From NCBI GenBank assembly GCA_963693555.1, contig CAVOAA010000003.1:1-40394 (forward strand): a DNA stretch of 40,394 nucleotides. The letters are read 5' to 3'. Position 1 is the first letter of the stretch. Every line of letters starts with the position of its first letter. The notes below the pieces were generated by a model. The model saw only the letters and a list, made by a program, of their open reading frames with translations. It made no database searches and was not told the DNA's origin. Positions 5,606 to 40,394 of the stretch are shown one piece after another. The position numbers and the translations under genes were made by a program. This stretch comes from Dehalococcoidia bacterium (GTDB taxonomy: Bacteria > Chloroflexota > Dehalococcoidia > Lucifugimonadales > UBA3495).

Positions 5606-8033
5606 ATGAGATTGGCTTTCATGGTCGTCGCCTGGTTTCTAGGAGTCCTGATTGGCCTAGAAACCGATGCGCCGTTGGCTGCGTTGTTATTTCTCTCGGG
5701 AGCAGCGGTCACATCGGGGCTGGCGATGCGCCTGCGTCGGCTGCCGGTGTTCCCTGCGGTGCTGGTTTTGTTCTTGCTCCTGGGGTGATTCCGTTGTCAG
5801 CCCACCTTCGCCCTTTGAGTCCCTGCCACTAGCCGGTCAGACCGGGGCCGAGGTCACGCTTGAGGGTCAGATCAGCGGCTACCCTGAGTTCTCCGGCAGC
5901 CGTATCCGGTTTCAACTCGACCTGAAAGAGGTCATCGCCGACTCCGGCGCGATTTCCTTAGAGGGCCGAATCCTGGTCTACGCAAGGCCGTCTACCGACC
6001 TGGTGAGCCGCCGTTCACCGCCCTACTTCGATCACGGCGACCGAGTCACTGTCACCGGCAAACTGAGCCGTCCCGAGCCGTTTGGCGGGTTCGACTATCC
6101 AGCATACCTGGCAGGCCAAGGGATCACCGGAATCATGAACGCCGGATCCACTATCGTGACCGGAACAGCCAGTGGGTGGCGGGAGTGGCCCTACTCGCTG
6201 CGAAGCCGCCTATCGGAGAGCATCCAAGACACGGTCCCTTACCCGCAATCGGCCCTGGGGCAAGCGTTGCTTCTCGGATTAAAGAGCGACCTGCCGCCGG
6301 AGATGGTGCAGGACTTCCGGAGCACTGGAACCTCCCACCTGCTGGCCATATCCGGTCTGCACGTGGGCGTTTTGGTGGTGATGTTCCTGGCCGGGGCGTC
6401 GTGGTTATTGGGACGACGCGGTTGGTACTTCTTGGCCGTCCCGCTGATCGCAGTCTGGGCCTATGCCCTGGTCACTGGACTCCCGCCATCGGTTGTGCGG
6501 GCGGCGGTGATGGGCAGCGTGTATCTGGTTGCGATGGGGCTTGGCAGACCCGGAAGCATCCTGCCGGCATTGGCGTTTAGTGCGGGAGTCATGACCGCGG
6601 TATCTCCGGAGATAATCCAGAGAGTGTCTTTTCAGCTCAGCTTCGCCGCCATGGCCGGAATAGCGTTCACCCAGCCGTTCATTCCCCGGTGGGCGCCTGC
6701 AACAACAGGGCCGGGCCATGCCTGGTGGGAGCCTTGGGCTTACTCGTTGGTCCGCGCGCCCTTGATCGCACTGATAATCTCCTGGTCCGCCATGCTGGCT
6801 ACCTGGCCGCTATTGGCCTTTAACTTTAGGGAGGTGGCGCTGCCCGGCATCATCGTCACGGTCCTGGCGCTTCCAGCCATGCCATTCATCATGGCGGGAA
6901 CTCTGCTGGCGGCGGTGGTGGGTCTCGCCAGTACAACTCTTGGGCAGATCGTCGGCTGGCTGGTGTGGGTGCCGTCCAGTTATCTGATAGGGCTGGTTGA
7001 GCTAGCTCCGAAGTGGACGGTGCAGACCGACTGGGCCAACAACTGGTTGGTGGTGGCCTGGTACTCGGCTCTGGGCGCGCTTTTGCTACTGCTCAAGCCG
7101 GGTCGGTTGGGACGGGCGTGGTCGCGAGTCAAAGAGGGGATAAGAGCGCTGGCAGGCATACGGATGGAGCCGGTCAAGACTGTTCCGGTCGTGCTGGGCG
7201 CAGTGATGATGGCGGCGGCCGCCATTACGCTCTGGTGGCAGGTCGGGTCCGCAGGCAACGGCGACCTACACGTCTATTTCTTTAACGTGGGACAGGGCGA
7301 CAGTGCGCTGATCGTAACTCCGGGCGGGCGGCAGGTATTGGTAGACGGCGGCCCCAAGTCGGACAGCGCCATTCGGGCCCTTGACGGCGCAATGCCCAAC
7401 GGCGACCGCAGCCTCGACCTGGTGGTGGTGACCCATCTGGACTCGGACCATAGCCGGGGCCTGTTGGACGTCTTGGACAGCTACCAGGTGGGCGCGGTAC
7501 TCTCGGGGGCCAGTTCCACTGAATCCGCGATGTTTGCCCAGTGGCAGGCCAGCGTAGCACGGAACCGCGTTGATGTGATCTCCGTGCATCAGGGATACCG
7601 GCTGGACCTTGGCTCCGGGGTGATGGCGGAGGTGCTGAACCCAGTGTCCGCAACGTCCGGTCAGACGGCCAACAACGGTGCGTTGGTGCTGCGGGTGACC
7701 TACGGTGACATCAGTTTCTTACTGACGGCTGACGTCGAAGCCGCGACGGAGTCATTATTGGCGGCCAGCCAGGCGGGGATTCAGAGCACTGTTTTGAAAG
7801 TGGCCCATCACGGCAGCAAAACATCTTCTACCGCCGGTTTTCTGGACGCAGTGGACCCGGCGGTGGCGTTGATATCCGTGGGTGGAATCAACTCGTTCGG
7901 ACATCCCAGCCCCGAGGTGGTCGGGAGGTTGTTGCTACAGACAGTGCGCGAGAACCTGTACCGGACCGACGAGGACGGCGAGGTCGAGTTCATCACTGAC
8001 GGCCGAGATCTATGGGTTAACACGGAGCGGTGA
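5606..8033 (+). pseudogene. comEC: ComEC/Rec2 competence protein, split by a frameshift near 5782-5790
   Basis: The 60-aa hydrophobic N-terminus (5606-5788) stops at TGA. The remainder is in the +1 frame with HLLAISGLH, SFQLSF, NVGQGDS, THLDSDH, LKVAHHGS, FGHP and YRTDEDG motifs. Confidence 0.8.
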
Positions 8034-8137
8034 TCTCTCGCAACAGGCGTAATGTATACTGGTTTTTGATGCCTGGGCTGACTCTAATACGCCCTTGCGC
8101 GCATCTGAATCAATAACCAAGACTAAGGAAAAAACAA

Positions 8138-8872
8138 TTGGCTGATTATTCCAGACCGGACGGACGAGCTTGGGACGAAAACCGCCCTACGATCATCACA
8201 CCCGGTTATCAGAAATACGCCGAGGGTTCGGCATTGATCGAGATGGGCACCACCAAGGTGTTGTGCGCCGCCTCACTTGAAGAAAAGGTGCCCGGTTTCA
8301 TGCGAGGCCAGGGCAAAGGCTGGGTCACCGCCGAATACTCCATGTTGCCCCGTGCGACCAACACCCGGTCGACCCGGGAGCGGGATTCAGGCAAGCCCAG
8401 CGGACGCTCTCAGGAGATTCAACGCCTGATTGGCCGCTCCTTAAGGGCGGTGACCGACCTGGATGCCCTGGGCGAGCGCACGGTCCAGATAGACTGCGAC
8501 GTGATCCAGGCCGACGGAGGCACCCGGACCGCCGCCATCACCGGGGCCTACGTTGCATTGCATCAGGCTTTGCAGATGCTGGTTAAGAATGGGATTTTGG
8601 CCGAGCTTCCGCTGCTCTGTCCGGTGGCAGCGGTCAGTGTTGGCATACTGAATGGTCAACTCCTGCTCGACCTCTGCTACGAAGAAGACTTTGCCGCCGA
8701 TGTTGATTTCAATGTGGTACTAACGTCCGAAGGCGGCCTGGTGGAGATTCAGGGCGCAACGGAAGCCCAACCATTTCCCCGCCAACAGGTGGAAGAGGTC
8801 TTATCATTGGCATCCCGGGGTATGGAGTCCCTCTTCAGGATCCAACGTGAGGCTGCAAAGGGGTTCGCGTAA
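8138..8872 (+). CDS. rph: Ribonuclease PH
   Basis: [64 protein letters not shown]; TTG start after TAAGGA. Confidence 0.95.
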
Positions 8873-8874
8873 CC

Positions 8875-10032
8875 ATGACCTTCTTATTCGGCCGGTCGAT
8901 GGCCCGTCCGTCCAAGTCGGGTCTCAGGGTCTTTCTGGCCGTGACGATGCTGGCGCTGCTGGCTGCTGTTGCCTGCTCCAGTGACCCGACGGCCACTGGG
9001 GAGTCCATACCTACTCCGCAGCCAACGATCGAGAACGAGGGCAGCGCTCCGAGCATGCTGCAACTACCCAACATTGCCGACACGGTGGAAGATGTGCGCC
9101 CGGCTGTGGTGTCCATCGTCGCCAGAATCATCACCCAGGACCGGTTCGGCCGCCAGTCGACTGGTTTTGGCAGCGGCACCGGGGTCATCTTTGATGAATC
9201 GGGCCTGGTGCTCACCAACAACCATGTGATCGAAGGTGGAGTGGAGATCACTGTAACCAAGGACGACGGGACTCAGGTCGTTGCCGAAATCGTCGGCGCG
9301 GACCGGCTCTCGGACCTGGCCGTACTGCGGCTACCGGGTGACGGGTACCCATCATTGCCATTGCGAGAGAGCGGAAATCTCCGGGCAGGAGATTGGGTGA
9401 TCGCCATCGGCAATGCCCTGGCGCTGCCTGGTGGGCCCACGGTAACGGTCGGCGTTGTGTCGGCGCTGGGACGTTCCATCGAGGCATCACCCGGAATCAC
9501 CCTGTATGACCTGATCCAGACCGACACCTCCATCAACCCCGGCAACAGCGGTGGCCCTCTGATCGACCTGAACGGAAGCTTGGTTGGGATAAACACAGCG
9601 GTGCTCCGGGGTTCCAGCCAGGGCGGTGGGGTCTCTGTGGAGGGAATCGGATTCGCCATCGACATCGAGACCGCGAAACAGGTGGCGGACCAACTCGTGG
9701 AACTCGGGCACGTCCGCTGGGCCTGGATGGGCGTCTTCCTGGCCGACCTGATACCCGAAGTAGCGGCACAGGTTGGACTGCCGATCCGCGAAGGTGTGAT
9801 TATCCAGAACACGGTGGTCGATGGGCCATCGGACCGCGCCGGAATGGAACCTGGCGACATTGTGGTGAACATCGGTGGCCACGACATCGCTACAATCTCC
9901 GATTTGACCCGTCTGCTGAAACAGGAATTCAGCGCCGGCCAAGAGTTGGAGGTTGAGATATTCCGGATCGTTGACGGCGAAGGGTTCCGGAGGAAGCTCA
10001 CTCTGGAATTGGGCGAGCGTCCGCAACAGTGA
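8875..10032 (+). CDS. HtrA/DegP-family trypsin-like serine protease with PDZ domain, predicted lipoprotein
   Basis: Lipobox-like LAAVAC; triad motifs LTNNHV, DLAVL, INPGNSGGPL; C-terminal PDZ (GPSDRAGMEPGDIV). Confidence 0.92.
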   Translation: MTFLFGRSMARPSKSGLRVFLAVTMLALLAAVACSSDPTATGESIPTPQPTIENEGSAPSMLQLPNIADTVEDVRPAVVSIVARIITQDRFGRQSTGFGSGTGVIFDESGLVLTNNHVIEGGVEITVTKDDGTQVVAEIVGADRLSDLAVLRLPGDGYPSLPLRESGNLRAGDWVIAIGNALALPGGPTVTVGVVSALGRSIEASPGITLYDLIQTDTSINPGNSGGPLIDLNGSLVGINTAVLRGSSQGGGVSVEGIGFAIDIETAKQVADQLVELGHVRWAWMGVFLADLIPEVAAQVGLPIREGVIIQNTVVDGPSDRAGMEPGDIVVNIGGHDIATISDLTRLLKQEFSAGQELEVEIFRIVDGEGFRRKLTLELGERPQQ

Positions 10033-14796: not shown

Positions 14797-15750
14797 TTAG
14801 AAAATGCTGCCTCGAAGATATGTCAGAGCTAGCGCGATTGCTAGGCCGAAAAAAGCTACTGAGTACATCGAATGGACGGCTTTGCTGATGTCTGACGGTT
14901 CTATGGGCCGTTCGGGTTCGCCCAGGGTATAGCCGACGTCCGGGTCTATTTTTTGGAGTTGTATTCCCAGCGCCCCGGCCATGCCGCTCATGGTCCAGCC
15001 AGCATTGGGGCTTTGGGTCCGGCCGTGGTGTTGCCACATGGTGCGCCAGGCCCTGGATATCTGCTGGCCCGGTAGAAAGCCGCTGGAGACCACCAAGAGC
15101 AGTCCGGCTAGCCGCGCCGGGATCAGGTTCACCAGGTCGTCGAGCCGCGCTGAAGCCTTGCCCACGTACTCGTAGACTCCCCGGTAGCCTATCATACTGT
15201 CCAGCGTGTTGATCATGCGGTAGGCAAGGGCTCCCGGCAGGCCGAATAGGGCGAAGAATAACCAGGGCGCCAGGAAGCTGTCGTTGATGTTTTCCGAGAC
15301 CGATTCAACGGTAGCGGCGGTGGCCTGCTCCGCGGTCAGATCGGATGGGTCCCGGCTGACCAGGGAAGGCATCCTGGCCCGCACCTGTTCCATGTCGTCC
15401 CGGTCCAGATGGCCGCGGATCAAGGCCGCCTCCTTGTGTAACAGACGCACCGAGAAAGTGGTTTTCAATACGGCCGCTCCGACCAAGATGTAGACCAGCG
15501 AGCCGACGTCTTGCAGCCAGAAACTCAGGAAGTAAGCCTCAGTCCCCCAGATGGCAGGCAAGACCAGCGCTATGGACAGGCCAGCCATGATGCCGATGAA
15601 CCCTTTCTTGGGCGACCACCGGACAACGAAGGATATGTGCCTCCCCATCCAGACCGTTGGGTGAAACCGGGTCGGAGGTTCGCCCAATACCAGGTCAAGC
15701 AGCACAGCCAGGGCCAGGACCGCCAGGTCATCAGTTCCGGAAAATATCAA
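14797..15750 (-). CDS. cbiB: Adenosylcobinamide-phosphate synthase CbiB
   Basis: LD..LGEPP..HP.VWMG, LVSRD, VESVSEN..D, YRMINTLDSMIGY, ARLDD..N.IPARL, SPNAGW. Probable TTG start at 15750 overlaps the cobS stop (TTGA); the longest ORF starts at 15786. Confidence 0.9.
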   Translation of the reverse strand: MIFSGTDDLAVLALAVLLDLVLGEPPTRFHPTVWMGRHISFVVRWSPKKGFIGIMAGLSIALVLPAIWGTEAYFLSFWLQDVGSLVYILVGAAVLKTTFSVRLLHKEAALIRGHLDRDDMEQVRARMPSLVSRDPSDLTAEQATAATVESVSENINDSFLAPWLFFALFGLPGALAYRMINTLDSMIGYRGVYEYVGKASARLDDLVNLIPARLAGLLLVVSSGFLPGQQISRAWRTMWQHHGRTQSPNAGWTMSGMAGALGIQLQKIDPDVGYTLGEPERPIEPSDISKAVHSMYSVAFFGLAIALALTYLRGSIF

Positions 15751-16520
15751 AACCGTTCCAATAAGTCGGGCAGCGGCTCCAGCCATCCATGGGTCGCCAG
15801 AGCCGTCGCGACGATTATCACGGTGGTCTCGATGATCTCGTTAGTCGCTCCGTAGGTGTCGCCCGTAAGACCGCCCAACGACTTGGCCATCGCCCATCCC
15901 ATCAACCAGGCCATAACTATGACCCCGAAGAAGAGCCCCAGTCCGGCAAAGCCACCAAGCAGGATAGCTGCGGCTAGAGCGGAGAGTCCCGCCACCGTGG
16001 TAGCTATTTTGATGCCCGCGCCGTGGAAAGGTGACCCAAGACCCTGGGAGCGTACATAAGGAAAGGCTCCCAACAAGACGACCATCGTCCACCGGGACAG
16101 GGCCGGGAAGAGCAGCAAAGCCCACTCTTTACCGGGGCCGGGGATGGTCAACAGTGAGACCAAAGCCGCGTACTTCAATAGCAGGACCGTGACTCCGCCA
16201 ACCACACCGAATGCGCCCACCCGGGAATCGCGCATGATCTCCAACCGGCGTTCCGGAGTGAAGCCACCGAACACGCCATCGCAAACGTCCATCAGGCCGT
16301 CCAGATGGAGACCTCTGGTGACGATGACCATGACGGCCACCAGAAACGCAGCGGTCAAAGGCTCGGAGAACAACCGGCTGGACCCCTCTTCCACGCCCAC
16401 CAATAGCAGGCCCATGAGCAGGCCGACGGCGGGGTAGAAGGCCCGGGAGTTGCTGATGTTCCGGGGGCCGCGGTCCATGTTGCGCGCGAACGGGAATAGG
16501 GTGAGGAAGGTCACCGCCAA
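15747..16520 (-). CDS. cobS: Adenosylcobinamide-GDP ribazoletransferase (cobalamin synthase) CobS
   Basis: FLT..P, GLHLDGL.D..DG, RLEIMRDSRVGAFG, GGLTGDTYGA..E; the start may extend to CTG 16550. Confidence 0.92.
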   Translation of the reverse strand: MAVTFLTLFPFARNMDRGPRNISNSRAFYPAVGLLMGLLLVGVEEGSSRLFSEPLTAAFLVAVMVIVTRGLHLDGLMDVCDGVFGGFTPERRLEIMRDSRVGAFGVVGGVTVLLLKYAALVSLLTIPGPGKEWALLLFPALSRWTMVVLLGAFPYVRSQGLGSPFHGAGIKIATTVAGLSALAAAILLGGFAGLGLFFGVIVMAWLMGWAMAKSLGGLTGDTYGATNEIIETTVIIVATALATHGWLEPLPDLLERF

Positions 16521-16546
16521 GCGGAGGGGATTGAGCCAGAAAGAGA

Positions 16547-17638
16547 TCAGGAGGCGGCCCCTTGATCGTCGTCATCGATCTTTTCGGAGACGCCCGCTTC
16601 GGCAAAGGTGGTCATGTCAGTGAGGCACTTGGCGGCCGCTTCTATCAGGTGCATCGACAGAGTAGCGCCGGACCCTTCGCCCAGCCGCATACCCAGTTCG
16701 AGCAGCGGCTCGAGGCCCATGTGGGTGAGTTCAAGCCGGTGACCCGGTTCCACGGACTGGTGGGAAGCGATGAAACGGTTCGCTGCTTCCGGGGCAATGG
16801 CATGGGCGATCAGCGCGGCGGCGCCGGAGATGAACCCATCTACTATCACAGGACGGTGTCCGGCTGCTGCTCCTAGGAACACTCCAGCCAAGACCCCAAT
16901 CTCGAACCCGCCTACCTTCATGAGGATGTCCAAACCGTCTTTGGAGTCGGGCTTGTTAACGTCGATCGCCTTTTGAACCACTGCGGCCTTGTGAGCTAAA
17001 CCGGCATCGTCCAACCCGGTGCCACGGCCGGTGGTAACTTCAGTGCTGGCGCCGGTGATGACAGATGTGATGGCGCTGGATGGGGTGGTGTTACCGATGC
17101 CCATGTCTCCGCAGGCGATCAGATCGGCGCCTGCCGCAATCATTTCCTGGCAGACCTGGATGCCCGTCTCCAGGCATTGGATGGCCTGTTCGCGGGTCAT
17201 AGCCGGGCCAACGGCGATGTTATCTGTGCCCCGACCGATCTTCACCGAGCGCAGGGACGGATGTTCCGGCAGGTCGGCTGCGACGCCGGCGTCCAGTACC
17301 ACGATATCGGCCCCGGCGTGGGTGGCCAATACATTGATGGCCGCGCCGCCGCCCAGGAAGTTCATCACCATGGCCGGGGTGACGTCCTGCGGGTAAGCGC
17401 TGACGCCTTCTGCCACAACGCCGTGGTCGCCAGCGGCCAAGATAACGGTCTTGCGCCGGATAGCCGGGTTGGCTTCACCGAAGATTCCGGCGAGCTTTAT
17501 AGAAAGCTCTTCCAGGCGGCCCAAACTGCCCAGCGGTTTCGTCAGTTGGTCCTGCCGGGCCGTGGCGGCAGTCATCGCTGCTTCGTCCAGAGGAACTATG
17601 TCTTTTATCGTGCGGTCGATCAGGTCAGATATGGCCAT
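16547..17638 (-). CDS. cobT: Nicotinate-nucleotide-dimethylbenzimidazole phosphoribosyltransferase CobT
   Basis: LTKPLGSLGRLE, AGDHGV..EGVSAYP..VT, GDMGIGNTT, VGGFEI, DGFI, LGMRLGEGSGA. Confidence 0.95.
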   Translation of the reverse strand: MAISDLIDRTIKDIVPLDEAAMTAATARQDQLTKPLGSLGRLEELSIKLAGIFGEANPAIRRKTVILAAGDHGVVAEGVSAYPQDVTPAMVMNFLGGGAAINVLATHAGADIVVLDAGVAADLPEHPSLRSVKIGRGTDNIAVGPAMTREQAIQCLETGIQVCQEMIAAGADLIACGDMGIGNTTPSSAITSVITGASTEVTTGRGTGLDDAGLAHKAAVVQKAIDVNKPDSKDGLDILMKVGGFEIGVLAGVFLGAAAGHRPVIVDGFISGAAALIAHAIAPEAANRFIASHQSVEPGHRLELTHMGLEPLLELGMRLGEGSGATLSMHLIEAAAKCLTDMTTFAEAGVSEKIDDDDQGAAS

Positions 17639-17699
17639 TTAGCCTCTTTGGTTCAGTCCTGACCAAGGTCGGGACGATAATTCAGTCTACAACTAGCGC

Positions 17700-18290
17700 C
17701 TAGAATTCTATGCCGGGTTGGGCTTTGATGCCCACTTGATAGGGGTGCTTGACGACCTGCATCTCGGTGACCAGGTCGGCGTATTCCACCAGGGCTTCGG
17801 GGGCGTTTCGGCCGGTGATGATGACATGCAGCATCTCTGGCCTAGCCTTCAACACTTCGATGACTTCTTGGGTGTCTATCCAGCCGTAGTGCATGGGATA
17901 GGTGAACTCGTCCAGCACAATCACGTCGTACTTGCCTGAGGCGATGACGCCTTTGACGTCCTCCCAGTGGGTCCGGGCCAGTTCGGCAGATTGGTCCAGG
18001 TCCTTGGACCGCCAGGTGAAACCGTCGCCCATGGCCTTCATCTCAATGCCCATCTTCTGGGCGGCGCGTTGCTCGCCGAAGTTGGCGGTGGAGTGTTTTA
18101 TGAACTGATACATGATCACGTTCATGCCCCGGCCCCAGGCCCGCACCACCACTCCCATGGCGGCGGTGGTCTTGCCTTTGCCCTTGCCGGTATTGACGAT
18201 CACCAGGCCCTTATCGATCCTTGGGCCGGTGACTGACTGGGGGCCCGGTTCTGCTTGCGTGTCTTTGTTCTCAGGGGTATCTGTACTCAT
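17700..18290 (-). CDS. cobO: Cob(I)yrinic acid a,c-diamide adenosyltransferase (CobO/BtuR/CobA-type)
   Basis: [58 protein letters not shown]. Confidence 0.95.
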
Positions 18291-18339
18291 GTTTTATCCT
18301 GACCGACTATGCCGGTTCTATTTAATGGCGCGGTTTTGG

Positions 18340-19701
18340 TTAAGCTTTGGTGCAGGTCTCGACGAACCTTGATGCCAGACCGGGGCGGCTGCCCAGGTGT
18401 ATGTGCACGTAAGAGGCCCAGACGTTGCCGGTGCGGAAACCGTCGGGCCGGTTATCCTGGTCGACTACTTTATAGACTGACTCATCAGCGTCTGGTTGGT
18501 GGGCCAGGGTGGACCAATGGAACTCGTGGCCCCGTACGCGTTGTCCTTTGAGCAGGACTGGGCTATCGGAACATGACTCCACTTCGCGGTACCCCAACGT
18601 CAATCGGCTCTGCGACATGGCCGACTCTGCGGGAATGACACCAATCATGGAGTGGGTCGCGCCTTCCAGGTCGGACAGGCTCTTGCCCAGGTACATCAGG
18701 CCGCCACATTCCGCGTACACCGGCACGCCCTTGGCCACCGCCTGGCGTATGGCATCGTGCATGGGTCTGTTCTCGGAGAGTTGGGAGGCGAACAGTTCAG
18801 GAAAGCCGCCGCCCAGGTAGATGCCGCTGGTTCCGGCCGGCAGTTTCTCGTCTTCCAACGGGCTGAACGGTGCTATCTCTGCACCCCAAGCGGTCAGAAG
18901 GTCGAGGGAGTCCTGGTAATAGAAGTTGAAGGCCATGTCCTGGGCAACGGCGATGGTGGCTCGGGCCGGTAGTGAGTGTCCCGGGTATACACCGGGGGCC
19001 GCCGCGGGTGTCTTGGCCGTCTGGGCCAGTTTCAGGATGGCGTCAACGTCCATGGTCGCTTCAACCTGGTTGATGACGCTGTCGTACCACTTCTGGGCCA
19101 CGGTCCCTTCGACAGTGGGAATCAGTCCCAGATGGCGTTCCGGCTGGATGAACTCTTCTTTTCTGGGTAGATACCCAAGCACCGGAAGGCCGGTTGTTCC
19201 CTCTATCTGAGGTTTGCAGAACTCCAGATGCCGGTCGCTGCCCACGCCGTTCAAGATCACCCCGGCCACGTTCAGGTCAGGGTCGAACTTCTGGAATCCC
19301 AACACCTCAGCGGCCACGCTGCGGGCCACCTTGGCGGCGTCGGCGATCAGGATCACCGGAGCGCCCAATAGCTTGGCCAGCTGGGCGGTAGAGCCCTCTT
19401 CTGTAAGGCTAGAATGGCCGTCGAACACGCCCATGACGCCTTCCACAACGGAGACATCCCGTCCGGCGCTGGCCCGTTGGAACAACTCAAGTACCGTGGG
19501 GTGGTCGCAGAGCCAGGTGTCCAGGTTACGGCTGGGCACGCCGCAAGCCAGTTTGTGGTAGGAAGGGTCGATGTAATCGGGGCCGGCCTTGAAGGGCTGC
19601 ACCTTGAGGCCACGGCGAGTCAGAGCGCCCATGATGCCGGTGGCAATGGTGGTCTTACCCACCCCGGAACGCACTCCAGCTATGACAATGGTTGCGGCCA
19701 T
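18340..19701 (-). CDS. cbiA: Cobyrinate a,c-diamide synthase CbiA/CobB
   Basis: SGVGKTT, FKAGPDYIDP, EGVMG.FDG, ERHLGL, F.FYY, GGGFPE, YAECGGLMYL, GHEFH, SYVHIH. Confidence 0.95.
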   Translation of the reverse strand: MAATIVIAGVRSGVGKTTIATGIMGALTRRGLKVQPFKAGPDYIDPSYHKLACGVPSRNLDTWLCDHPTVLELFQRASAGRDVSVVEGVMGVFDGHSSLTEEGSTAQLAKLLGAPVILIADAAKVARSVAAEVLGFQKFDPDLNVAGVILNGVGSDRHLEFCKPQIEGTTGLPVLGYLPRKEEFIQPERHLGLIPTVEGTVAQKWYDSVINQVEATMDVDAILKLAQTAKTPAAAPGVYPGHSLPARATIAVAQDMAFNFYYQDSLDLLTAWGAEIAPFSPLEDEKLPAGTSGIYLGGGFPELFASQLSENRPMHDAIRQAVAKGVPVYAECGGLMYLGKSLSDLEGATHSMIGVIPAESAMSQSRLTLGYREVESCSDSPVLLKGQRVRGHEFHWSTLAHQPDADESVYKVVDQDNRPDGFRTGNVWASYVHIHLGSRPGLASRFVETCTKA

Positions 19702-19749
19702 TCAGTATTCCTCTGGTCTGGGGTATCTGGTCTGAGGCATCTTGGGCTC

Positions 19750-19755
19750 ATTATA
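19750..19755 (-). promoter_or_regulatory. Putative -10 box for the cob operon
   Basis: TATAAT on the minus strand about 50 nt upstream of the cbiA ATG; no clear -35. Confidence 0.4.
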
Positions 19756-34066: not shown

Positions 34067-34891
34067 CTACACGGGCGTCTTACGATATGGCTCCAGTAAT
34101 ATCCGGACGTCGGTGTCCAGATCAGCGTCTACGAAGAAGGGTTCAAAGTCGGCAGACCGAGTCCAGATCCTGGCCGTCTGCACCAACGCCGCCCGTTCCA
34201 CCGAAGCCGGCCAGCGCAGGATGCTGATGTCAGAGTTATCAGCGTGCGCAGCGGCCGTGGACCCGTTCAAGGCGCGAGTCATTGTCAAGTCGTTGCTGGA
34301 GATCGCAATGACCAGCATCTGTTCCGTCCCGATGAGAGCCGTCTGACCGATCTGAAACTGAGTGCCGTCATCCACTGCCACGGTGGTTTTTGTGGTGTCC
34401 ATGGAGGCATCGTTCAGGTCCGTGCCGCTGTCCTCGGGGAATCTGGCGTAGCCCCAGACCCCTGTGATCTGGAAATTCTGTTCCCCGGTTGTGAACCCGT
34501 CCGCATTATTTCCTTTAGACCGTGACTTTAATGCGGTGTATGGGCTCCCCCAGTGCTGGGTGGGAGCGGCGTTGTACGGCTGCAGCAAATAGTCGCTGCT
34601 GGCCCACGTTTTGTCGAAGGTAAGATCGCCGCTACCGTCTTCTTTCAGTGATGTGACTGAGATCAGGTCCGGCACTATCAATTGCGCTGTTCCCCGGCCA
34701 TCGAACACCAAGGTCTCGGTCTTGGGATAGAAATGGCGGTTGCAGTATCTATCGACCCAATCAGACACCGACAGCAGCAACTGGAACAACTCGTCGTCGT
34801 CGCCCGTTCCGCTGGCCGGGTCTTTCAGCAGGCTGTCGTCTTTCAGTTTAGTCAGGTCACCGTAGAGTGACCGGTACGCTTCACGGCCCAT
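34067..34891 (-). CDS. Phage head-tail connector (gp6/gp15-like adaptor) with an inserted beta-rich domain
   Basis: DD.L..LL..VS..VDRYCNRHF, DL.SVTSLK, DY.L.P.N, ITGVWGY...WP..V..A.L....RIW, D.DV..LL.PYR pattern; lies downstream of the capsid gene; AAGGAGG RBS. Confidence 0.75.
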   Translation of the reverse strand: MGREAYRSLYGDLTKLKDDSLLKDPASGTGDDDELFQLLLSVSDWVDRYCNRHFYPKTETLVFDGRGTAQLIVPDLISVTSLKEDGSGDLTFDKTWASSDYLLQPYNAAPTQHWGSPYTALKSRSKGNNADGFTTGEQNFQITGVWGYARFPEDSGTDLNDASMDTTKTTVAVDDGTQFQIGQTALIGTEQMLVIAISSNDLTMTRALNGSTAAAHADNSDISILRWPASVERAALVQTARIWTRSADFEPFFVDADLDTDVRILLEPYRKTPV

Positions 34892-34966: not shown

Positions 34967-35362
34967 TCACGACTCCTCGGCGTATTCGATGATGATCTTG
35001 TGGGTATTCGAGGGAGCGAATCCCCGCCACCGGCCGCTGAGCACCTCATTCCGCCGGCCCCGAGGGCCCTGCCTGCTCTGAAAAACGCGGGTCGCTGCGG
35101 CGCCTTGGTTGGGCACGGCCAGGACATCGATGCTCTTGTTACGTGCGGTGATCATGTTGGGAGCGTCACCGAAATACAGCTCCCACAGATGCCTTCCGTC
35201 AGCGGCGTCCTGCAAGACCTTGGTACGGATGAAACGGATGCGGCGGCCCGGTCTGGGGGTTAGGATCGTCTGTTGGCTGGTATCGGTGCTTGAGTCAACG
35301 ACCCGGACCAGCAACCGGAATGTACGCTGCCGGGGCCTTACCCGGTGGCGGCGCCTGGCCAA
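34967..35362 (-). CDS. Hypothetical virion-accessory-like protein, paralog of 35366-35758, Arg-rich N-terminus
   Basis: TTG start after GGAG; shares TP..GRRIR, DGRHLWELY.G, QGPRG.R.EVLSGRW and HK.I.EY.EES with its neighbour. Confidence 0.75.
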   Translation of the reverse strand: MARRRHRVRPRQRTFRLLVRVVDSSTDTSQQTILTPRPGRRIRFIRTKVLQDAADGRHLWELYFGDAPNMITARNKSIDVLAVPNQGAAATRVFQSRQGPRGRRNEVLSGRWRGFAPSNTHKIIIEYAEES

Positions 35363-35365
35363 CGG

Positions 35366-35758
35366 CTATGACTCCTCTGTGTATTCAACGATCACCTTGT
35401 GGACCGTCGTTGGCGGCGTACCCAGCCACCGGCCGCTGAGGACTTCGTCCCGCTCTCCCCGTGGTCCCTGGTCCCGAAGAAACGTCCTGGTGGCAGCTTC
35501 TCCGTCGTTGGGTATGTCGAGAATGTCGATGGCCTTCTCGGGGTCGGTGGTGATATCTGTACCGGTGCCAAGATACAGCTCCCATAGGTGTCGTCCGTCC
35601 GTTTGCTCTTGGACCACCCGTACCCGCAGCACCCGTATCCGCCGGCCTTTTGAGGGGGTGACCAGGGTGTTGCGGGTATTGGATGTGTTGGAATCGTGGG
35701 CCCTGACCAACGCCACGTAAGGCCGGCGACGGATACTGGCCGAGCGGCGGGTGGTCAT
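35366..35758 (-). CDS. Hypothetical virion-accessory-like protein, paralog of 34967-35362, Arg-rich N-terminus
   Basis: ATGA overlap with the upstream gene; clear paralogy with the downstream ORF. Confidence 0.75.
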   Translation of the reverse strand: MTTRRSASIRRRPYVALVRAHDSNTSNTRNTLVTPSKGRRIRVLRVRVVQEQTDGRHLWELYLGTGTDITTDPEKAIDILDIPNDGEAATRTFLRDQGPRGERDEVLSGRWLGTPPTTVHKVIVEYTEES

Positions 35759-36012
35759 TTCAAGACCCGCCCGAAGCCGGCGCCGCCCAGGATTCCAATG
35801 GACGTGAGCGCCGCCCGGAGAGCTGTGCCGTCGATACCCAGGCTGAGGGCATATCCCTCCAGCCCGGCGATGGTCAGGATCCCCGCTAAAGTCACCAACG
35901 CCCAGTTCTTGGCGGACCAGTTCTTGGGCTTGGCATTTTCCAATTTGGGCAAACTGGGTTTGTGAGGCTTGGGGGCGTGAGGTATCAGGTTGCGTAGCCT
36001 GAAGATGGTCAA
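35755..36012 (-). CDS. Small two-TM membrane protein, holin-like (85 aa)
   Basis: TTG 36012 follows AGGAG and is in frame with track ORF 35755-36168; basic N-terminus then WALVTLAGILTIAGL and ALTSIGILGGAGFG; the holin label is inference. Confidence 0.6.
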   Translation of the reverse strand: MTIFRLRNLIPHAPKPHKPSLPKLENAKPKNWSAKNWALVTLAGILTIAGLEGYALSLGIDGTALRAALTSIGILGGAGFGRVLK

Positions 36013-36115
36013 CGTGTCTACTCCTATCGTGTTGATCTCCACGTGCAGGTCGTATTCAACTGCGCGGGCAGGTCGTCTTGAACTCCGCGCGCCGGACTTG
36101 ATCAATGGTCGTGGA

Positions 36116-36598
36116 TTATTCCTCCACTCCGAAGACCATGCCCGACACGGTGCTGGTGACCGTGACATCCAATTCCAGCGTATTGTCGGCTGCGGTCAGG
36201 GCAACGCCCTCTCCGATATCCTGGAGGCTGTGCACGCCCGCGGCCGCCAAGAGCGGCGATTGGGAGATTACCGTGCCCGCTGCAGCGCTGTCCTGAAATT
36301 CCAAGGCTGCTCCGGCCGTGCTGGACAGGCTCCAACCGAGGAGCCGGACGGTTTTGTCGCTGGCCGGCGTCCAGACCGTGACCGGCGTACCGGCGGTGAT
36401 GGCCACCGCGTCGATCACCTTGAAGGTCACAGCGCGGTATTGATCTCTGGTGATCAGCCGCCCCGCCGTGTCGACCAGCAAGTAGACGTTGTCGCCATCG
36501 GCCACTCCCGGAGGAGTGGCCTGGTACTTGGAGCCGATCCGTGTCAGCCGTTCTTTGGTGTCTGCGGGGCTGTCATGAGGCCCGTCTGCGTATCCCAT
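36116..36598 (-). CDS. Hypothetical virion-accessory-like protein (beta-rich C-terminal domain)
   Basis: 160 aa, co-oriented in the capsid operon; VWTPASDKTVRLLG resembles the TP..GRRIR motif of the two downstream paralogs. Confidence 0.7.
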   Translation of the reverse strand: MGYADGPHDSPADTKERLTRIGSKYQATPPGVADGDNVYLLVDTAGRLITRDQYRAVTFKVIDAVAITAGTPVTVWTPASDKTVRLLGWSLSSTAGAALEFQDSAAAGTVISQSPLLAAAGVHSLQDIGEGVALTAADNTLELDVTVTSTVSGMVFGVEE

Positions 36599-36698
36599 GT
36601 TGAATCGATTCCCCTTTTGCTGATTTCTTGGTTAAGTCTTTTTGGTTAAGTTTTTAATGGACACCCCGGATGTGCAGCCCGGGGTCTGGCGGGGCCGA

Positions 36699-37040
36699 TT
36701 ACGAAAGGGGTACGTATTCGATGATGACGGTCCCTGCTAGGCTGGCGGCATTCTGGACCAGAATCTTGCCGGTGATGTAGTCATTGGTCCCGCCGTTCTT
36801 TTCCCATTTCAGGGCTTCACCACCGTTGGACCCGGCATCGTCGTGCCGGTCGGCAACTCCTGTCGCATTGAGGTCGAGACCGTCGATGATGCTGTCGCCG
36901 GTGCTCGTGGCATTGGCGTTGCCGGAAGCCATGGCTTCCACTATGTAGCGTTTGGCAACATAGACGATGCCCGACTGGTCGGGCGGGATCATGTTCTTGA
37001 CGGCCTCGGCCACCGGGTCCTTCTGACTAAAGGTTGTCAT
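36699..37040 (-). CDS. Putative capsid decoration/cement protein
   Basis: 113 aa, Gly/Ala/Asp/Thr-rich, directly downstream of the major capsid gene; AAGGAG RBS; function inferred from position. Confidence 0.6.
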   Translation of the reverse strand: MTTFSQKDPVAEAVKNMIPPDQSGIVYVAKRYIVEAMASGNANATSTGDSIIDGLDLNATGVADRHDDAGSNGGEALKWEKNGGTNDYITGKILVQNAASLAGTVIIEYVPLS

Positions 37041-37159
37041 GCGATCTCCTTAATATTGTTAGAAATACGCTCTGTCCGAACTCGCACTGACTGAGCAAAG
37101 TTGAGCCCGGAGCCATGCTCGAATCAATAACACGGCCCCATGAAAACACGGCTGCGCCG

Positions 37160-38491
37160 TTAGACGCCGGTTATGTTGTAGTGGAGGGCGGTGTGGGTGG
37201 CGGTCGACCGGCTGCCGGAGCGTTCCTGCAGCCCGATCCTAAAGCTGACCACCATGATGTTCTGCCGCTTTTGAGCGTCACGGACAGTCTCGATCGTCAG
37301 CTCGCGTTTGAAGCCGACCCGCCACTGGGAGCGGTTCACGATCAGCAGCCGACCGGTGTTGGTTCCGTTGCCAGCGTCAGTCACCTTGCCGTCGGTATCG
37401 GCCGGGGCCATCTGCTCGGAGACGATCACCGGTATGCCTTCGACCGCGCCGAGTTGCCCGGTGAGCAGGGTAGCCTGGGGGCCGAACTTGTCTAATGTGC
37501 GGAAATTGGACACGCTGAGCGCCCTGATGAACGTGTTCACATCGGTGACGTAGACCGTCTCGGAAGGCCGTACCCCAAACTTGCCCAGCTTGGAACGGAC
37601 CTCATTGAACATGTCATCAGAGACAGCAGCATTGTGGTCGGTGCCCTGGCCGGTGTTGTCCACCAACGGCAGGTGCAAGAGGCCGTCGAATCCCAGAAGC
37701 CACTGTCCCTTGCCGGCGTCGGTGCTGGCGATTGTCGCGCCGTCGGCGTTGATGTTGTTGGTAACCGTGGTGTCGCCGTTCAAGATCACGTCGTCGATGA
37801 CCTCCCGGGCGTTCCGCATCAGGCTCCGGCGCAGCTCCTCCATCATGGCGATCACCGAGTCCTCGTCCAGGTCGTAGGACCAGGGGACTTCGGCCACCAA
37901 TTCGTAGGCGGTCAGCGTTTGGCGGGCGGTGGTCAGGCCGGTGGATTTGGTGGCCACGTTTTCGGTGCCGGGGTACCAGTTCACATCGCCCAGTTGCAGA
38001 GGGATCTGGAACGGATTGCTAGGCATCTGGATCGTATTGAAAAGGGGTGCGACCGAAGTCTCCAGATTGACGTCGTCCCAGAGGGCACGGGCCTCCTGAG
38101 TGTCAACCAACTCGTCTCCCGTGCCGGACGTTGTGGAGTCCATGGCCGCTTTCAGGTTGGACTGCCAGTCCTCCAGCATCCGGGGATTCACTCCGGTGGG
38201 CTCGCGCATCTGGGCGGTAAGCAGGCTGCGGACACAGGCCATGTCCAGGTGGTCCAGGCCGGCATATTTTCCGAAGCCGACCCTGGAGCGGTCGTCGCCG
38301 CCGTAACGGGAAAGCAAGGCCCGTTTTTCTCCGGTCCGCCACATCTCCTGTACCTTGCTCAGTTGGCCGGAGATACGGTCCATCTCTTCCTTAAGAGGTG
38401 GGATCTCCGTGTCGATGCGGGCGTCATAGAACTCTCGTATACCGGACAATTCCCGTTTGATCAGTTCCAAGTCTTGTGCCGCGATAGTCAT
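37160..38491 (-). CDS. HK97-fold phage major capsid protein with an N-terminal coiled-coil scaffold (delta-like) domain
   Basis: KAAMDSTTSGTGDELV (typical start of mature HK97 capsid), I.MPSNP..IP, S.DLDEDS, ID..ILNGD, GQLG.VEGIPVIVSE; follows a prohead protease; ATG 38491 after AAGGAG. Confidence 0.9.
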   Translation of the reverse strand: MTIAAQDLELIKRELSGIREFYDARIDTEIPPLKEEMDRISGQLSKVQEMWRTGEKRALLSRYGGDDRSRVGFGKYAGLDHLDMACVRSLLTAQMREPTGVNPRMLEDWQSNLKAAMDSTTSGTGDELVDTQEARALWDDVNLETSVAPLFNTIQMPSNPFQIPLQLGDVNWYPGTENVATKSTGLTTARQTLTAYELVAEVPWSYDLDEDSVIAMMEELRRSLMRNAREVIDDVILNGDTTVTNNINADGATIASTDAGKGQWLLGFDGLLHLPLVDNTGQGTDHNAAVSDDMFNEVRSKLGKFGVRPSETVYVTDVNTFIRALSVSNFRTLDKFGPQATLLTGQLGAVEGIPVIVSEQMAPADTDGKVTDAGNGTNTGRLLIVNRSQWRVGFKRELTIETVRDAQKRQNIMVVSFRIGLQERSGSRSTATHTALHYNITGV

Positions 38492-38595
38492 ATACAACTC
38501 CTTGGTTTTACTAATGGATGCTAGAGACGATGGTCATGAGTGCTGAGTCCTGGGCGGCGAGCCCTGCTGAGAGCTTTCAGGCTTTTTAAGAAAGG

Positions 38596-39390
38596 TCAGA
38601 TCCGGCCCGAACGGAGGACAGATACCAGGTCTGACACCGGGTCCGAAGCTAAGCCGGCAATCTGCTCAGGCCTTGGCAGTTCCTTGGCGTTGTTCTCCAG
38701 CTCGAACACCGTGTCGGAGATCTCGCTGGCCAGTTTTCCCAGCTCGTCTACCTGTGAAGCCAGCACCGGCCACAGGGCAGCCAGGGTGTTCAGGTCCGGC
38801 TGGTCAGAGCGCCGAAGGGCGTTGCGGTTGGCCGGGACAGGGACTGCGCTAACCTCCAGCAATTCTTGCTCCAGGAAGCGGAGACCCAGGAAGGCGCCGG
38901 TCTTTTCGTCGCGGCGCTCTTCATAGCGCAGGGGCTTGAATCCCACCGAGACGCCCCACTGGAAACCCGACCGGTATAGGGAAGCGATCTCCTGGGCGAA
39001 TTCGGTGGGCGCGAACTGCATGTTGGCCAGCAGCCGGTGCGGCTCCGTCCACAGCTTCGCCGCGCGGCCGATGGCGGGTTGGCGGTAGTCGTGGGCCCAG
39101 AGCAAGACCGGGTTCTCCCGGTAGGAGTCCAACACCCAGCCGTCGGCGGAGATGATGTCTCCGTGCCGATCTACGTCGTCAGTGGAGAGGACGAATGTGA
39201 TCGTCTGCTCCTGTTCCTCACCGGAATGCCCTTTGGCATGGAACTCTTTCAATGGACAAGCGGCGTTAGATTCGACAGAGTTGGTCCATTTTGTGACCAC
39301 GGGCGCCTCGCCCGCGCCACGGCTGAAGGCTTGCAGTGATTGCAACAACAGGCGGCGTTCCCGCCCTGTTTCCTGGGTGCTAGTCGGCAT
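38596..39390 (-). CDS. HK97-family prohead maturation protease
   Basis: ST..VDRHGDII...GW....Y..NPVLLWAH....PAIG, GVSVGF.P, QELLEVSAVPVPAN.NAL (His/Ser/Glu catalytic motifs intact); AAGGAG RBS. Confidence 0.92.
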   Translation of the reverse strand: MPTSTQETGRERRLLLQSLQAFSRGAGEAPVVTKWTNSVESNAACPLKEFHAKGHSGEEQEQTITFVLSTDDVDRHGDIISADGWVLDSYRENPVLLWAHDYRQPAIGRAAKLWTEPHRLLANMQFAPTEFAQEIASLYRSGFQWGVSVGFKPLRYEERRDEKTGAFLGLRFLEQELLEVSAVPVPANRNALRRSDQPDLNTLAALWPVLASQVDELGKLASEISDTVFELENNAKELPRPEQIAGLASDPVSDLVSVLRSGRI

Positions 39391-39464
39391 CTTCTCTCCT
39401 TTTTTTGTTTGGCTTTGATCGGTCGTTTTGGTGTTCCGGTGTTTCCATACTTCCGTGACCGGGC

Positions 39465-39500
39465 AAAAAACAAGGGACAGACCACAAAGGGTCTGTCCCT
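39465..39500 (-). terminator. Intrinsic terminator inside the 5' leader of the capsid operon
   Basis: Minus strand: AGGGACAGACC-ctttgt-GGTCTGTCCCT-TGTTTTTT; no minus-strand gene ends here. Confidence 0.75.
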
Positions 39501-39572
39501 ACGAGCAATTCCATATCCGGCCCAACTGCCGGCCTGCCGATTTAACGCAGACGGTTGTTTAAGCTGGAATTG

Positions 39573-39602
39573 AGTGTAGAAACGCGCTTTCCAGGGTGTC
39601 AA
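39573..39602 (-). promoter_or_regulatory. Sigma70-type promoter facing the capsid operon
   Basis: Minus strand TTGACA-N18-TACACT. Confidence 0.6.
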
Positions 39603-39799
39603 CGCGGGCCTGACATCAGAGAAGAACCACCTATCAAAGGTGACTATGAACCGCGCGGAGAATCTCCGGACACAGTGGTCCGACCAGGTGTTCGACGGCG
39701 TTGACTGGGTAATTCTGTCTGTGTTAGCTTTGTTAATACACAACTGGCGGAAAAACCCGCCAGAAATCTTCCCAGATAGTCTCTCAAGGAGAACAGGCA

Positions 39800-40216
39800 A
39801 TGGAAGTTACTACCCTCGCCATCGAGAAGCTCAAGGAAGTCATGCAAGAACAAGGTGAAACTGACGGGTCGCTGCGCGTAGTCGCGATACCTGCCGAGGC
39901 AGGCGGCCTTCAATATATGCTGACCATGGAAAACGAGACCCAGGCCGATGACACTATCATCGCTAAAGAGGGAGTCAAATTCCTCATGGACTCTGATAGC
40001 GCGCCCTTCCTGGAAGAGGCGACTATCGATTACGTCGAGAACCTGGGCGGACAGGTCGGGTTTGTCATTAACAACCCGATGTTCTCCAGCGCCGGCGGCG
40101 GCTGCGGCGGCGGATGCTCCTGCGGAAGCGGAGGCGGCGGCGGATGTGGCGGCGGCGGCGAAGAAAGCAGCGGCGGTGGATGCGGTTGCGGCAGCGGCGG
40201 TTGCGGCAGCCACTAA
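39800..40216 (+). CDS. HesB/IscA family (A-type Fe-S carrier-like) protein with a Gly/Cys-rich C-terminal tail
   Basis: VT..A..KLKE, LRV......GLQY.L, DD......GV....D..S..FL..ATIDY......GF.I.NP; AAGGAG RBS. Confidence 0.85.
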   Translation: MEVTTLAIEKLKEVMQEQGETDGSLRVVAIPAEAGGLQYMLTMENETQADDTIIAKEGVKFLMDSDSAPFLEEATIDYVENLGGQVGFVINNPMFSSAGGGCGGGCSCGSGGGGGCGGGGEESSGGGCGCGSGGCGSH

Positions 40217-40243
40217 GCCAAAATCGACACAAACCAGAAAAAC

Positions 40244-40276
40244 AAATGGGCCCCGATGAATCGGGGCCCATTTTTT
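40244..40276 (+). terminator. Intrinsic terminator after the iscA-like gene
   Basis: AAATGGGCCCCGA-tgaa-TCGGGGCCCATTT followed by a T-run. Confidence 0.88.
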
Positions 40277-40394
40277 ATTGGAGCAATCTAGACTGCCTTT
40301 TTCTGGATTTGTCTTTTGCAACAGGTGCCCCCGTCCCCCGCAAGCGGGAGAGGGGGTTTTTGAATTCCCTTCATAAATCCATCATCTGAGGTAA

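Follow-up and report, generated by a model that had tools for sequence, protein, structure and literature searches.

A short regulatory cassette was identified directly upstream of the phage-derived capsid operon of a Dehalococcoidia bacterium, on the minus strand of a contig of 40,394 nucleotides (nt) (CAVOAA010000003.1, assembly GCA_963693555.1), which at its full length is referred to below as the window. The cassette consists of a promoter, a leader and a terminator hairpin placed before the prohead protease gene that opens the operon. In 61 orthologous protease-capsid upstream regions of SAR202-type Chloroflexota, promoter and leader terminator were each detected in 51 loci, and the two form a conserved unit, both parts of which had been named in the original prediction made from the letters of the window. 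We propose that the unit acts as a two-tier gate, in which a regulated promoter would be followed by a leader terminator that has to be read through by means of a trans-acting antitermination factor; this reading was given a probability of about 0.5. Since the chance levels of promoter and terminator matches within the window are modest, the case rests on conservation.

The promoter TTGACA-N18-TACACT was present on the minus strand at 39602-39573, where it had been predicted (the coordinates of all features are collected in Table 1). One promoter-like site was found in the window against 0.8 expected, i.e. at chance level. Among the orthologous loci the pattern TTGAC-N17/18-TAnn[CA]T was detected 51 times, with a spacer of 18 nt in 48 and of 17 nt in 3 promoters. 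The ten loci without it were L013, L017, L052, L050 and six loci of families f42 and f36. In L013 (genome G021), an insertion carrying a sequence that is repeated elsewhere in G021 stands in place of the promoter and of the hairpin's 5' arm; in L017 and L052, the cassette lay beyond the scanned stretch or was interrupted. The upstream TGWCA element was absent from the search pattern, yet in 21 genus representatives it was conserved as T 95%, G 95%, A/T, C 100% and A 95%, with flanks at background level. The spacer of the window's genus, which reads CCCTGGAAAGCGCGTTTC, was conserved within the genus; its GAAA and GTTT arms were kept and the centre varied. Another spacer motif, TGGA[AT], was common to the head and terminase cassettes of family f1 and was not kept in f14. 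Genome-wide, the combined pattern TG[AT]C-N8-10-TTGAC-N17-19-TAnnnT resulted in 9 matches compared with about 6.5 by chance (an estimate with equal base frequencies), and 3 of the 9 belonged to the capsid operon, the terminase operon and lexA. In L014 (G022), and also in L050 and L074, an array of tandem repeats with a length of about 114 nt and containing GGAATGACAG was observed just upstream of the capsid promoter; each repeat unit holds a promoter-like TTGACC-N18-TAGATT.

The predicted 11-bp hairpin with a U-tract about 75 nt before the protease ATG was likewise found: the ATG, at 39390, lies 82 nt past the stem and 73 nt past the U-tract. The folding energy of the hairpin alone was -20.8 kcal/mol (z = -5.5), which was reached by none of 200 shuffles, and 6 terminator-like sites were counted in 38000-40394, where 2.4 +/- 1.4 were expected. 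The script detected a GGGAC-N-GACC hairpin with a T-rich tail in 51 of the 61 loci, and two more were recognized by eye in L017 and in L058, the latter having about 110 nt inserted in the loop. The conserved cassettes span families f1, f5 and f14. A different GC hairpin with a T-tract occupied the same place in genus g88 of f42. As in an intrinsic (Rho-independent) terminator, the element combines a stable GC-rich stem-loop with a U-tract on the transcribed strand only. Across the 46 aligned hairpins the mean stem energy was -20.2 kcal/mol, a T-run of at least 4 followed the stem in 43, and no upstream A-tract was seen (the 6 nt preceding the stem held 1.3 A on average). A pattern scan of 39391-39463, between the hairpin and the protease ATG, gave no promoter-like site. 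In L068 and L069, the T-run directly abuts GGAGGAG and then the ATG; as this leaves no room for a second promoter, expression of the genes there must come from read-through. Loop insertions of 24 to about 110 nt with the stem kept were observed in L091-L093 and L098 (terminase cassettes of f14), L058, L019, L056 and L057, and the insertions were themselves conserved within a genus.

The hairpin alignment included 46 of the 51 sequences; L019, L056 and L057 were dropped because of their 24-26-nt loops, L062 because of an internal mismatch and L038 as a duplicate. Pairing was observed in 94.0% of the cells of the 12-pair helix and in 26-52% when the partner was slid by 1-3 columns. Double-sided changes were present in 28 cells, and neither this value nor the covariation score was reached in 500 shuffles. 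At the central stem position N, the pairs A:U, U:A/U:G, C:G and G:C all occurred. The GGGAC of the 5' arm was invariant in 46 of 46 hairpins. Its partners had drifted to U in 21 cells, giving G.U at three basal pairs with the G always in the 5' arm. As read from the alignment, the stem is conserved in sequence far beyond what pairing needs. A covariation analysis of the orthologous leaders had been suggested; covariation was found for the terminator stem, and the other leader helices were not conserved. A candidate covariation between the upstream TGWCA element and the central base of the hairpin (shared 'GAC') was dropped after comparison by eye.

The leader between promoter and hairpin proved variable. 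Predicted start and hairpin were 21-127 nt apart across the loci, the sequence was not alignable between genera, and the predicted terminated RNA was 55-170 nt long. A structured leader had been expected; the fold of the 176-nt leader was no better than chance (z = -1.48; 17 of 200 shuffles were as good), and in the RNAalifold consensus of 12 leaders from the same genus the terminator hairpin was the sole helix retained. In single-sequence folds, several leaders formed a first hairpin within 15-35 nt of the start, but its stem sequence differed between them and the result was inconsistent. The further helices that had been listed, CAAC/GTTG, CCGTCTGC/GCAGGCCGG and CAATTCCA/TGGAATTG, are present in the window and were not conserved in relatives. 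CAATTCCA would lie at about -6 to +2 of the promoter, judged from spacing, and would therefore be mostly untranscribed; its partner TGGAATTG was not retained in relatives.

A second cassette was detected in the same genome (G000) on contig C84 at about 7220-9024 (locus L085:2950-4760), where a covariance model of the cassette hairpin, R1, scored 36 bits. It reads TGACG-N9-TTGACA-N18-TAGCGT, followed after 9 nt by AGGGACGGACCC-loop-GGGTCCGTTCT and TTTTTTT. Behind it stand an open reading frame (ORF) of 63 amino acids (aa) encoding a zinc-ribbon protein and a gene for a terminase large subunit of 482 aa (phrog_2, E 2.6e-39), and the unit is flanked by genes for an MFS transporter and a peptidase S9. 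The phage-derived genes of the genome are thus split into at least two small operons among host genes. The same succession of cassette, zinc-ribbon ORF and terminase was found in genomes G448, G002 and G434. Thirty terminase loci were fetched from the order, and a cassette was counted when it was accepted by the strict script or had a sense-strand R1 match. Promoter and GGGAC-type hairpin preceded the terminase in 17 of the 30 loci (12 accepted by the script; one doubtful case was excluded). The terminase cassettes of f14 had an insertion of 81-88 nt in the loop. In distant families, whose terminases were 35-41% identical, the hairpin stood 2-14 nt past the predicted start, and the unit consisted of terminase and portal genes among host genes.

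The exact hairpin and promoter strings were unique in the genome. An unbiased genome scan yielded 374 terminator-like hairpins, of which 3 had GGGAC in the 5' arm, namely the two cassettes and one other. The best R1 match in the window's genome was the hairpin of the protease leader with 49 bits, and the protease leader was also the best match in 48 of 61 genomes of the family. Among viral contigs, the exact hairpin pattern occurred in 15: 6 carried the protease-capsid module, 1 had a related cassette after an adaptor-like gene and 8 showed unrelated contexts; from these counts the hairpin is not a widespread phage motif. The six IMG/VR contigs with module and cassette (L166-L168, L170, L171, L174), some of them 80-97% identical to the proteins of the window, may be pieces of host genomes that were classed as viral on account of the module genes. 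In the genome scan, 41-42 of the 374 hairpins carried CGTCC/GTCCC in the 5' arm, in an orientation opposite to that of the cassette stem; they may represent a repeated terminator family or one resembling repetitive extragenic palindromes.

According to the proposed two-tier gate, the promoter, which is of housekeeping type with a perfect -35, would initiate near 39566 and produce a short leader of unimportant sequence. By default, most transcripts would end at about 39465 at the terminator, and the head genes would be made only when RNA polymerase reads through it. Read-through would most likely depend on a trans-acting antitermination factor. Such a factor could be loaded at the promoter, like Q, AlpA and GafZ, or could recognise the conserved sequence in the hairpin's 5' arm. 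The second tier would be repression at the promoter, possibly by LexA in the SOS response. One type of cassette would in this way co-ordinate at least two dispersed operons, one with the head genes and one with the zinc-ribbon and terminase genes. Antitermination was favoured for four reasons. A terminator of -20 kcal/mol before high-copy genes would otherwise be counter-productive, which is an argument from demand; the 5' arm is conserved beyond pairing needs; the conserved spacer sequence sits between -35 and -10, as do the sites bound by lambda Q, AlpA and GafZ according to the passages of PMC11150451 that deal with them; and a sensor acting in cis is excluded by leaders that can be as short as 21 nt. 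A farther-reaching version appears unlikely, namely that the cassette marks the regulon of a vertically inherited, dispersed and hitherto undescribed capsid/packaging system of SAR202-type Chloroflexota, switched by a factor which recognises the GGGAC arm and which is possibly the zinc-ribbon protein. If such a system existed, it would mean a use of the domesticated capsid that is like a gene transfer agent (GTA) or of another kind; with the zinc-ribbon protein as the factor, positive feedback and all-or-none expression in few cells would be expected. A search of the Protein Atlas with the zinc-ribbon ORF returned only generic zinc-ribbon clusters.

Several observations weigh against the gate. 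No antiterminator gene was found, the Q-type and GafY/GafZ families not having been searched, and a second NusG-family gene of RfaH/LoaP type was missing from the genome, which is 89% complete and gave one PF02357 match. No conserved regulator gene adjoins the module, and the neighbours differ between families. In genus g104 of f42 (L074, L075) the promoter was present and the terminator was not, and the T-tract was weak in L005, L047 and the terminase cassette of G002. Pair 15-31 of the helix had 9 A.C mismatches, and the related sequences are not independent, so that the counts overstate the support. GGGACGG-type hairpins serve as ordinary 3' terminators in the relatives L158 and L161, where R1 scored lower, so that this type of stem also occurs outside the cassette. 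No RNA contig of four seawater metatranscriptome runs, in which contigs alone were compared, covered the leader or the capsid genes, missing cover being no evidence of silence. Finally, the operator-like promoter elements could be the switch by themselves.

The last point was assessed with the lexA promoters of 30 genomes of the family as a reference. TG[AT]C was found at the same -13 position before TTGACA in 28 of the 30, and GAAC-N4-GTT[TC] just 3' of the -10 in 25. The common architecture (L128-L157; G000 contig C20 1827-2598) is TGAC(A)-N8-TTGACA-N17-TAGCCT followed by AGAAC-N4-GTTT, and its fixed form defines the predicted LexA box of the clade; the recA gene of the window's genome has CGAACATTTGTAC upstream. 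The spacer element GAAAGCGCGTTT differs from GAAC-N4-GTTY by one mismatch, located in the left half-site, and its place beside the -10 suggests a putative operator. Compared with LexA (SOS) operators of the GAAC-N4-GTTC type, as known from lexA, recA and defective prophages, the window is similar in having GAAA-GCGC-GTTT against the -10, and the cassettes of the distant families are similar in having GNAC-N4-GTTC in the spacer against the -10. In contrast, the box of the lexA promoters stands downstream of the -10 and that of the window in the spacer, with its left half-site mismatched. A constitutive promoter had originally been cited for the lambdoid late operons. With a TGWCA element common to lexA promoters and a LexA-box-like spacer element, the promoter of the capsid operon is probably not simply constitutive.

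These similarities allow an explanation in which the promoter alone is the switch: LexA or a LexA-like repressor would act at GAAA-N4-GTTT or TGWCA, and the terminator would be a passive, constitutive damper of leaky transcripts. Such a mechanism was judged possible although doubtful. The near-match of the window box to the family box, the near-consensus boxes of the distant cassettes, the TG[AT]C shared with lexA and the missing antiterminator gene all agree with it. However, a passive damper leaves unexplained why GGGAC is invariant while the 3' arm drifts to G.U, and why a strong terminator is kept before high-output genes. Moreover, the right half of the LexA-like box was lost in most other genera of the family, and the genome's own terminase cassette on C84 has no such box.

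The hairpin might also serve as a 5'-proximal stabiliser or mark of the mRNA, e.g. against 5'-end-dependent RNases, with termination being incidental. This would agree with the 2-14 nt separating the hairpin from the predicted start in terminase-type cassettes; in the window the distance is about 66 nt, however, and up to 127 nt elsewhere, and the co-conserved T-tract is not needed by a stabiliser, which makes this function improbable. Still lower is the probability of an independent trans-acting small-RNA gene of about 100 nt, one of the options raised originally. Its own promoter and terminator and the predicted RNA length could be expected of such a gene, but the body of the RNA varies in sequence and length and thus offers no seed region, the element always stands directly upstream of protease or terminase on the same strand, only about 45 nt would be transcribed in the terminase cassettes, and Rfam gave no match. 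An equally small chance was assigned to the palindrome working at the DNA level, as an operator bound by a dimeric protein (roadblock or repressor site), and not as an RNA structure. The conserved sequence does form a perfect inverted repeat, and the 9 A.C cells would be G.T on the other strand. The G.U cells, with G in the 5' arm throughout, nevertheless indicate unequally conserved half-sites, loops of 3 to about 110 nt are incompatible with a dimer of fixed spacing, and the T-tract is one-sided.

A riboswitch or other cis-acting attenuator (ligand aptamer, leader peptide or T-box-like), also among the original proposals, is very unlikely: the leader of the window can fold and a 44-codon ORF (39514-39380) crosses the hairpin, but the fold was no better than shuffles, a consensus structure was lacking, the ATG of the small ORF was not retained in relatives, Rfam gave 0 matches at the gathering score in the full window and, with the E limit raised to 10, only CC2171 (E 5.8, opposite strand) in 39300-39900, and the leaders of genera g2, g4 and g19, with just 21-24 nt, are too short for such an element.

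The antitermination gate resembles known systems in its logic. In lambdoid late control, the PR' promoter gives a short transcript terminated at tR' unless the Q antiterminator acts, and the original comparison with this arrangement was apt. Both arrangements have a strong promoter with an intrinsic terminator close to it, phage structural genes that follow and, as far as the Q element is described in PMC11150451, a conserved sequence between -35 and -10. In contrast to the lambdoid arrangement, a divergent IscA-like gene and no Q gene is found upstream of the cassette (Q families were not searched), the stem is conserved in sequence across families, the cassette is repeated at dispersed chromosomal mini-operons and its promoter carries LexA-type features. 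The account of the Caulobacter crescentus GTA in the relevant sections of PMC11150451 describes promoter activation by GafY/IHF and anti-termination by GafZ. On that account, the two systems have in common silent domesticated phage-like genes with one regulator set for several loci and, at the level of logic, promoter regulation combined with terminator read-through. They differ in that the Caulobacter terminator follows the first gene of a single 14-kb cluster and the present one is part of the 5' leader in every small operon, and in that a degenerate -35 needing an activator is replaced by a perfect -35 (PMC11150451, same sections). The hosts also differ, being Alphaproteobacteria and Chloroflexota, respectively. 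The cassette is therefore treated as an analogue and not as a demonstrated member of either system.

With ordinary Rho-independent terminators and 5' attenuators the hairpin shares the GC-rich stem, the short loop and the one-sided U-tract. Unlike an ordinary terminator, it lies between promoter and first gene instead of after a gene and is conserved in stem sequence beyond pairing; unlike 5'-leader attenuators, it has no conserved alternative antiterminator helix. The principle is known. In the literature that was searched, no description was found of a sequence-conserved leader terminator with a TGWCA/LexA-like promoter that stands before dispersed, vertically inherited head and packaging operons in several SAR202-type families. 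A literature search (supplementary files were not covered) revealed nothing linking capsid, GTA or terminase genes of SAR202 or Chloroflexi with such a module. SAR202-type bacteria are among the most abundant of the dark ocean. As a recognisable label of capsid/packaging operons, the cassette offers a handle for finding the remaining parts and the regulator, and it could allow the time of particle production to be predicted, which might follow DNA damage. It also makes testable whether these uncultured bacteria, in which the system is known here from genes alone, exchange DNA via GTA-like particles. For transcription in general, conservation of a terminator stem between families in its sequence, and not in its pairing alone, would point to a recognition step absent from the classical Q or N systems.

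Table 1. Features of the capsid operon, its cassette and the divergent promoter in the window
Feature	Position	Strand	Basis or remark
Upstream promoter element TGTCA (TGWCA)	39611..39615	-	starts 13 nt before -35
-35 hexamer TTGACA	39597..39602	-	sequence; pattern kept in orthologues
Spacer element GAAAGCGCGTTT, LexA-box-like, abuts -10	39580..39591	-	GAAA-GCGC-GTTT
-10 hexamer TACACT	39573..39578	-	family consensus TAnnCT; 18-nt spacer to -35
Variable leader	39501..39566	-	start at about 39566/39565 predicted from spacing only
Terminator hairpin, 11-bp stem AGGGACAGACC/GGTCTGTCCCT, 6-nt loop CTTTGT	39473..39500	-	fold, conservation, covariation
U-tract TGTTTTTTG	39464..39472	-	directly 3' of stem
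Distal 5' untranslated region with Shine-Dalgarno GGAG (39399-39396)	39391..39463	-	sequence varies among relatives
Prohead serine protease, 264 aa, first gene of the operon	38596..39390	-	Pfam Peptidase_S78 E 3.4e-7; PHROG head maturation protease
HK97-type major capsid protein, 445 aa	37160..38497	-	Pfam Phage_capsid; phrog_10
Five small ORFs without family match	34967..37040	-	four missing from the module in other families; last two are paralogues
Head-tail adaptor-like protein, 274 aa, last gene of the module	34067..34891	-	phrog_442 E 5e-16
Promoter of divergent IscA/HesB-like gene	TTGACT 39701-39706 / TAGCTT 39725-39730	+	sequence pattern

The capsid operon belongs to a metagenome-assembled genome (MAG) of 288 contigs, and the related loci come from MAGs of Chloroflexota, Dehalococcoidia and SAR202. 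The module ends at 34067, where ABC-transporter genes follow, and tail genes were not seen in it in the PHROG search. The upstream neighbour is the divergent IscA/HesB-like gene (Fe-S_biosyn) at 39800-40216 on the plus strand, which is syntenic with the module within the genus. The capsid promoter lies in the divergent intergenic region of 409 bp and so cannot belong to the terminator of an upstream gene. The adaptor-like gene after the capsid gene was kept in other families, as determined by comparison of the loci. The two adjacent ORFs of 130 and 131 aa (35366-35758 and 34967-35362, minus strand) were 55% identical and represent a tandem duplication. In G413 (L083), a DDE transposase gene was observed behind the protease gene, in the expected place of the capsid gene.

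The distribution of the protease was determined in 401 genomes sampled from the order (E <= 1e-20). Matches were obtained in 75, with a single locus in nearly all of them, and followed clades: 20 of 24 genomes in f1, 5 of 5 in f5 and 23 of 24 in f14 were positive, in addition to families f36 and f42. In the window's own genus, 11 of 19 genomes had the protease. Between families the capsid protein was 70-79% identical (loci L079-L082, L160), compared with 51-61% for the protease; LexA, taken for comparison, had identities of 60-76% in most of the family's other genera. Judged from these values, strong purifying selection appears to act on the capsid gene, as would be expected of a domesticated, functional protein. 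Structural and packaging genes that are vertically inherited at fixed chromosomal sites, one of the characteristics of gene transfer agents, were found. The capsid operon is a chromosomally fixed, phage-derived set of head genes with a protease, an HK97 capsid protein and an adaptor-like protein.

The co-occurrence of protease and terminase was compared within the genus: 2 genomes with the protease had the terminase, 2 without it lacked the terminase, and 1 without it had a terminase fragment with stops, which indicates a joint loss of the two operons. The Pfam models of the portal (PF04860) and of TerL_ATPase (PF03354) gave no match in the genome; these negatives are uninformative because the terminase was later found via the hairpin model and PHROGs. 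In relatives (G003, G016, G014, G024, G267, G448, G216) the portal gene directly follows the terminase. The portal of a relative and phrog_12, used as queries, gave no portal in the window's genome; there, the gene next to the terminase on its 3' side is a convergent peptidase gene. G002 had a portal split into two pieces, and none was detected in G011. The missing portal of the window's genome is either a gene loss or a gap or misassembly of the incomplete MAG. In several genomes the terminase was in 2-3 pieces or contained in-frame stops (G024:C1:780459-784825; L081 (G087) 15511-19754; several f5 loci), and a GIY-YIG endonuclease gene was observed near the broken terminase of G087. The broken genes may reflect intervening elements or decay.

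Eight seawater metatranscriptome runs contained 7-13% of the words of 37100-40394. In the contigs of four of these runs, identity to the window was confined to 39750-40252, i.e. to the divergent IscA-like gene, with word depths of about 17-230 and a contig end at 39750/39751 in three runs. The organism and its IscA-like gene are represented in the RNA libraries. The encoded IscA/HesB-like protein has a Gly/Cys-rich C-terminal tail, and a hairpin at 39744-39763 was observed at the 5' end of the IscA-like transcript.

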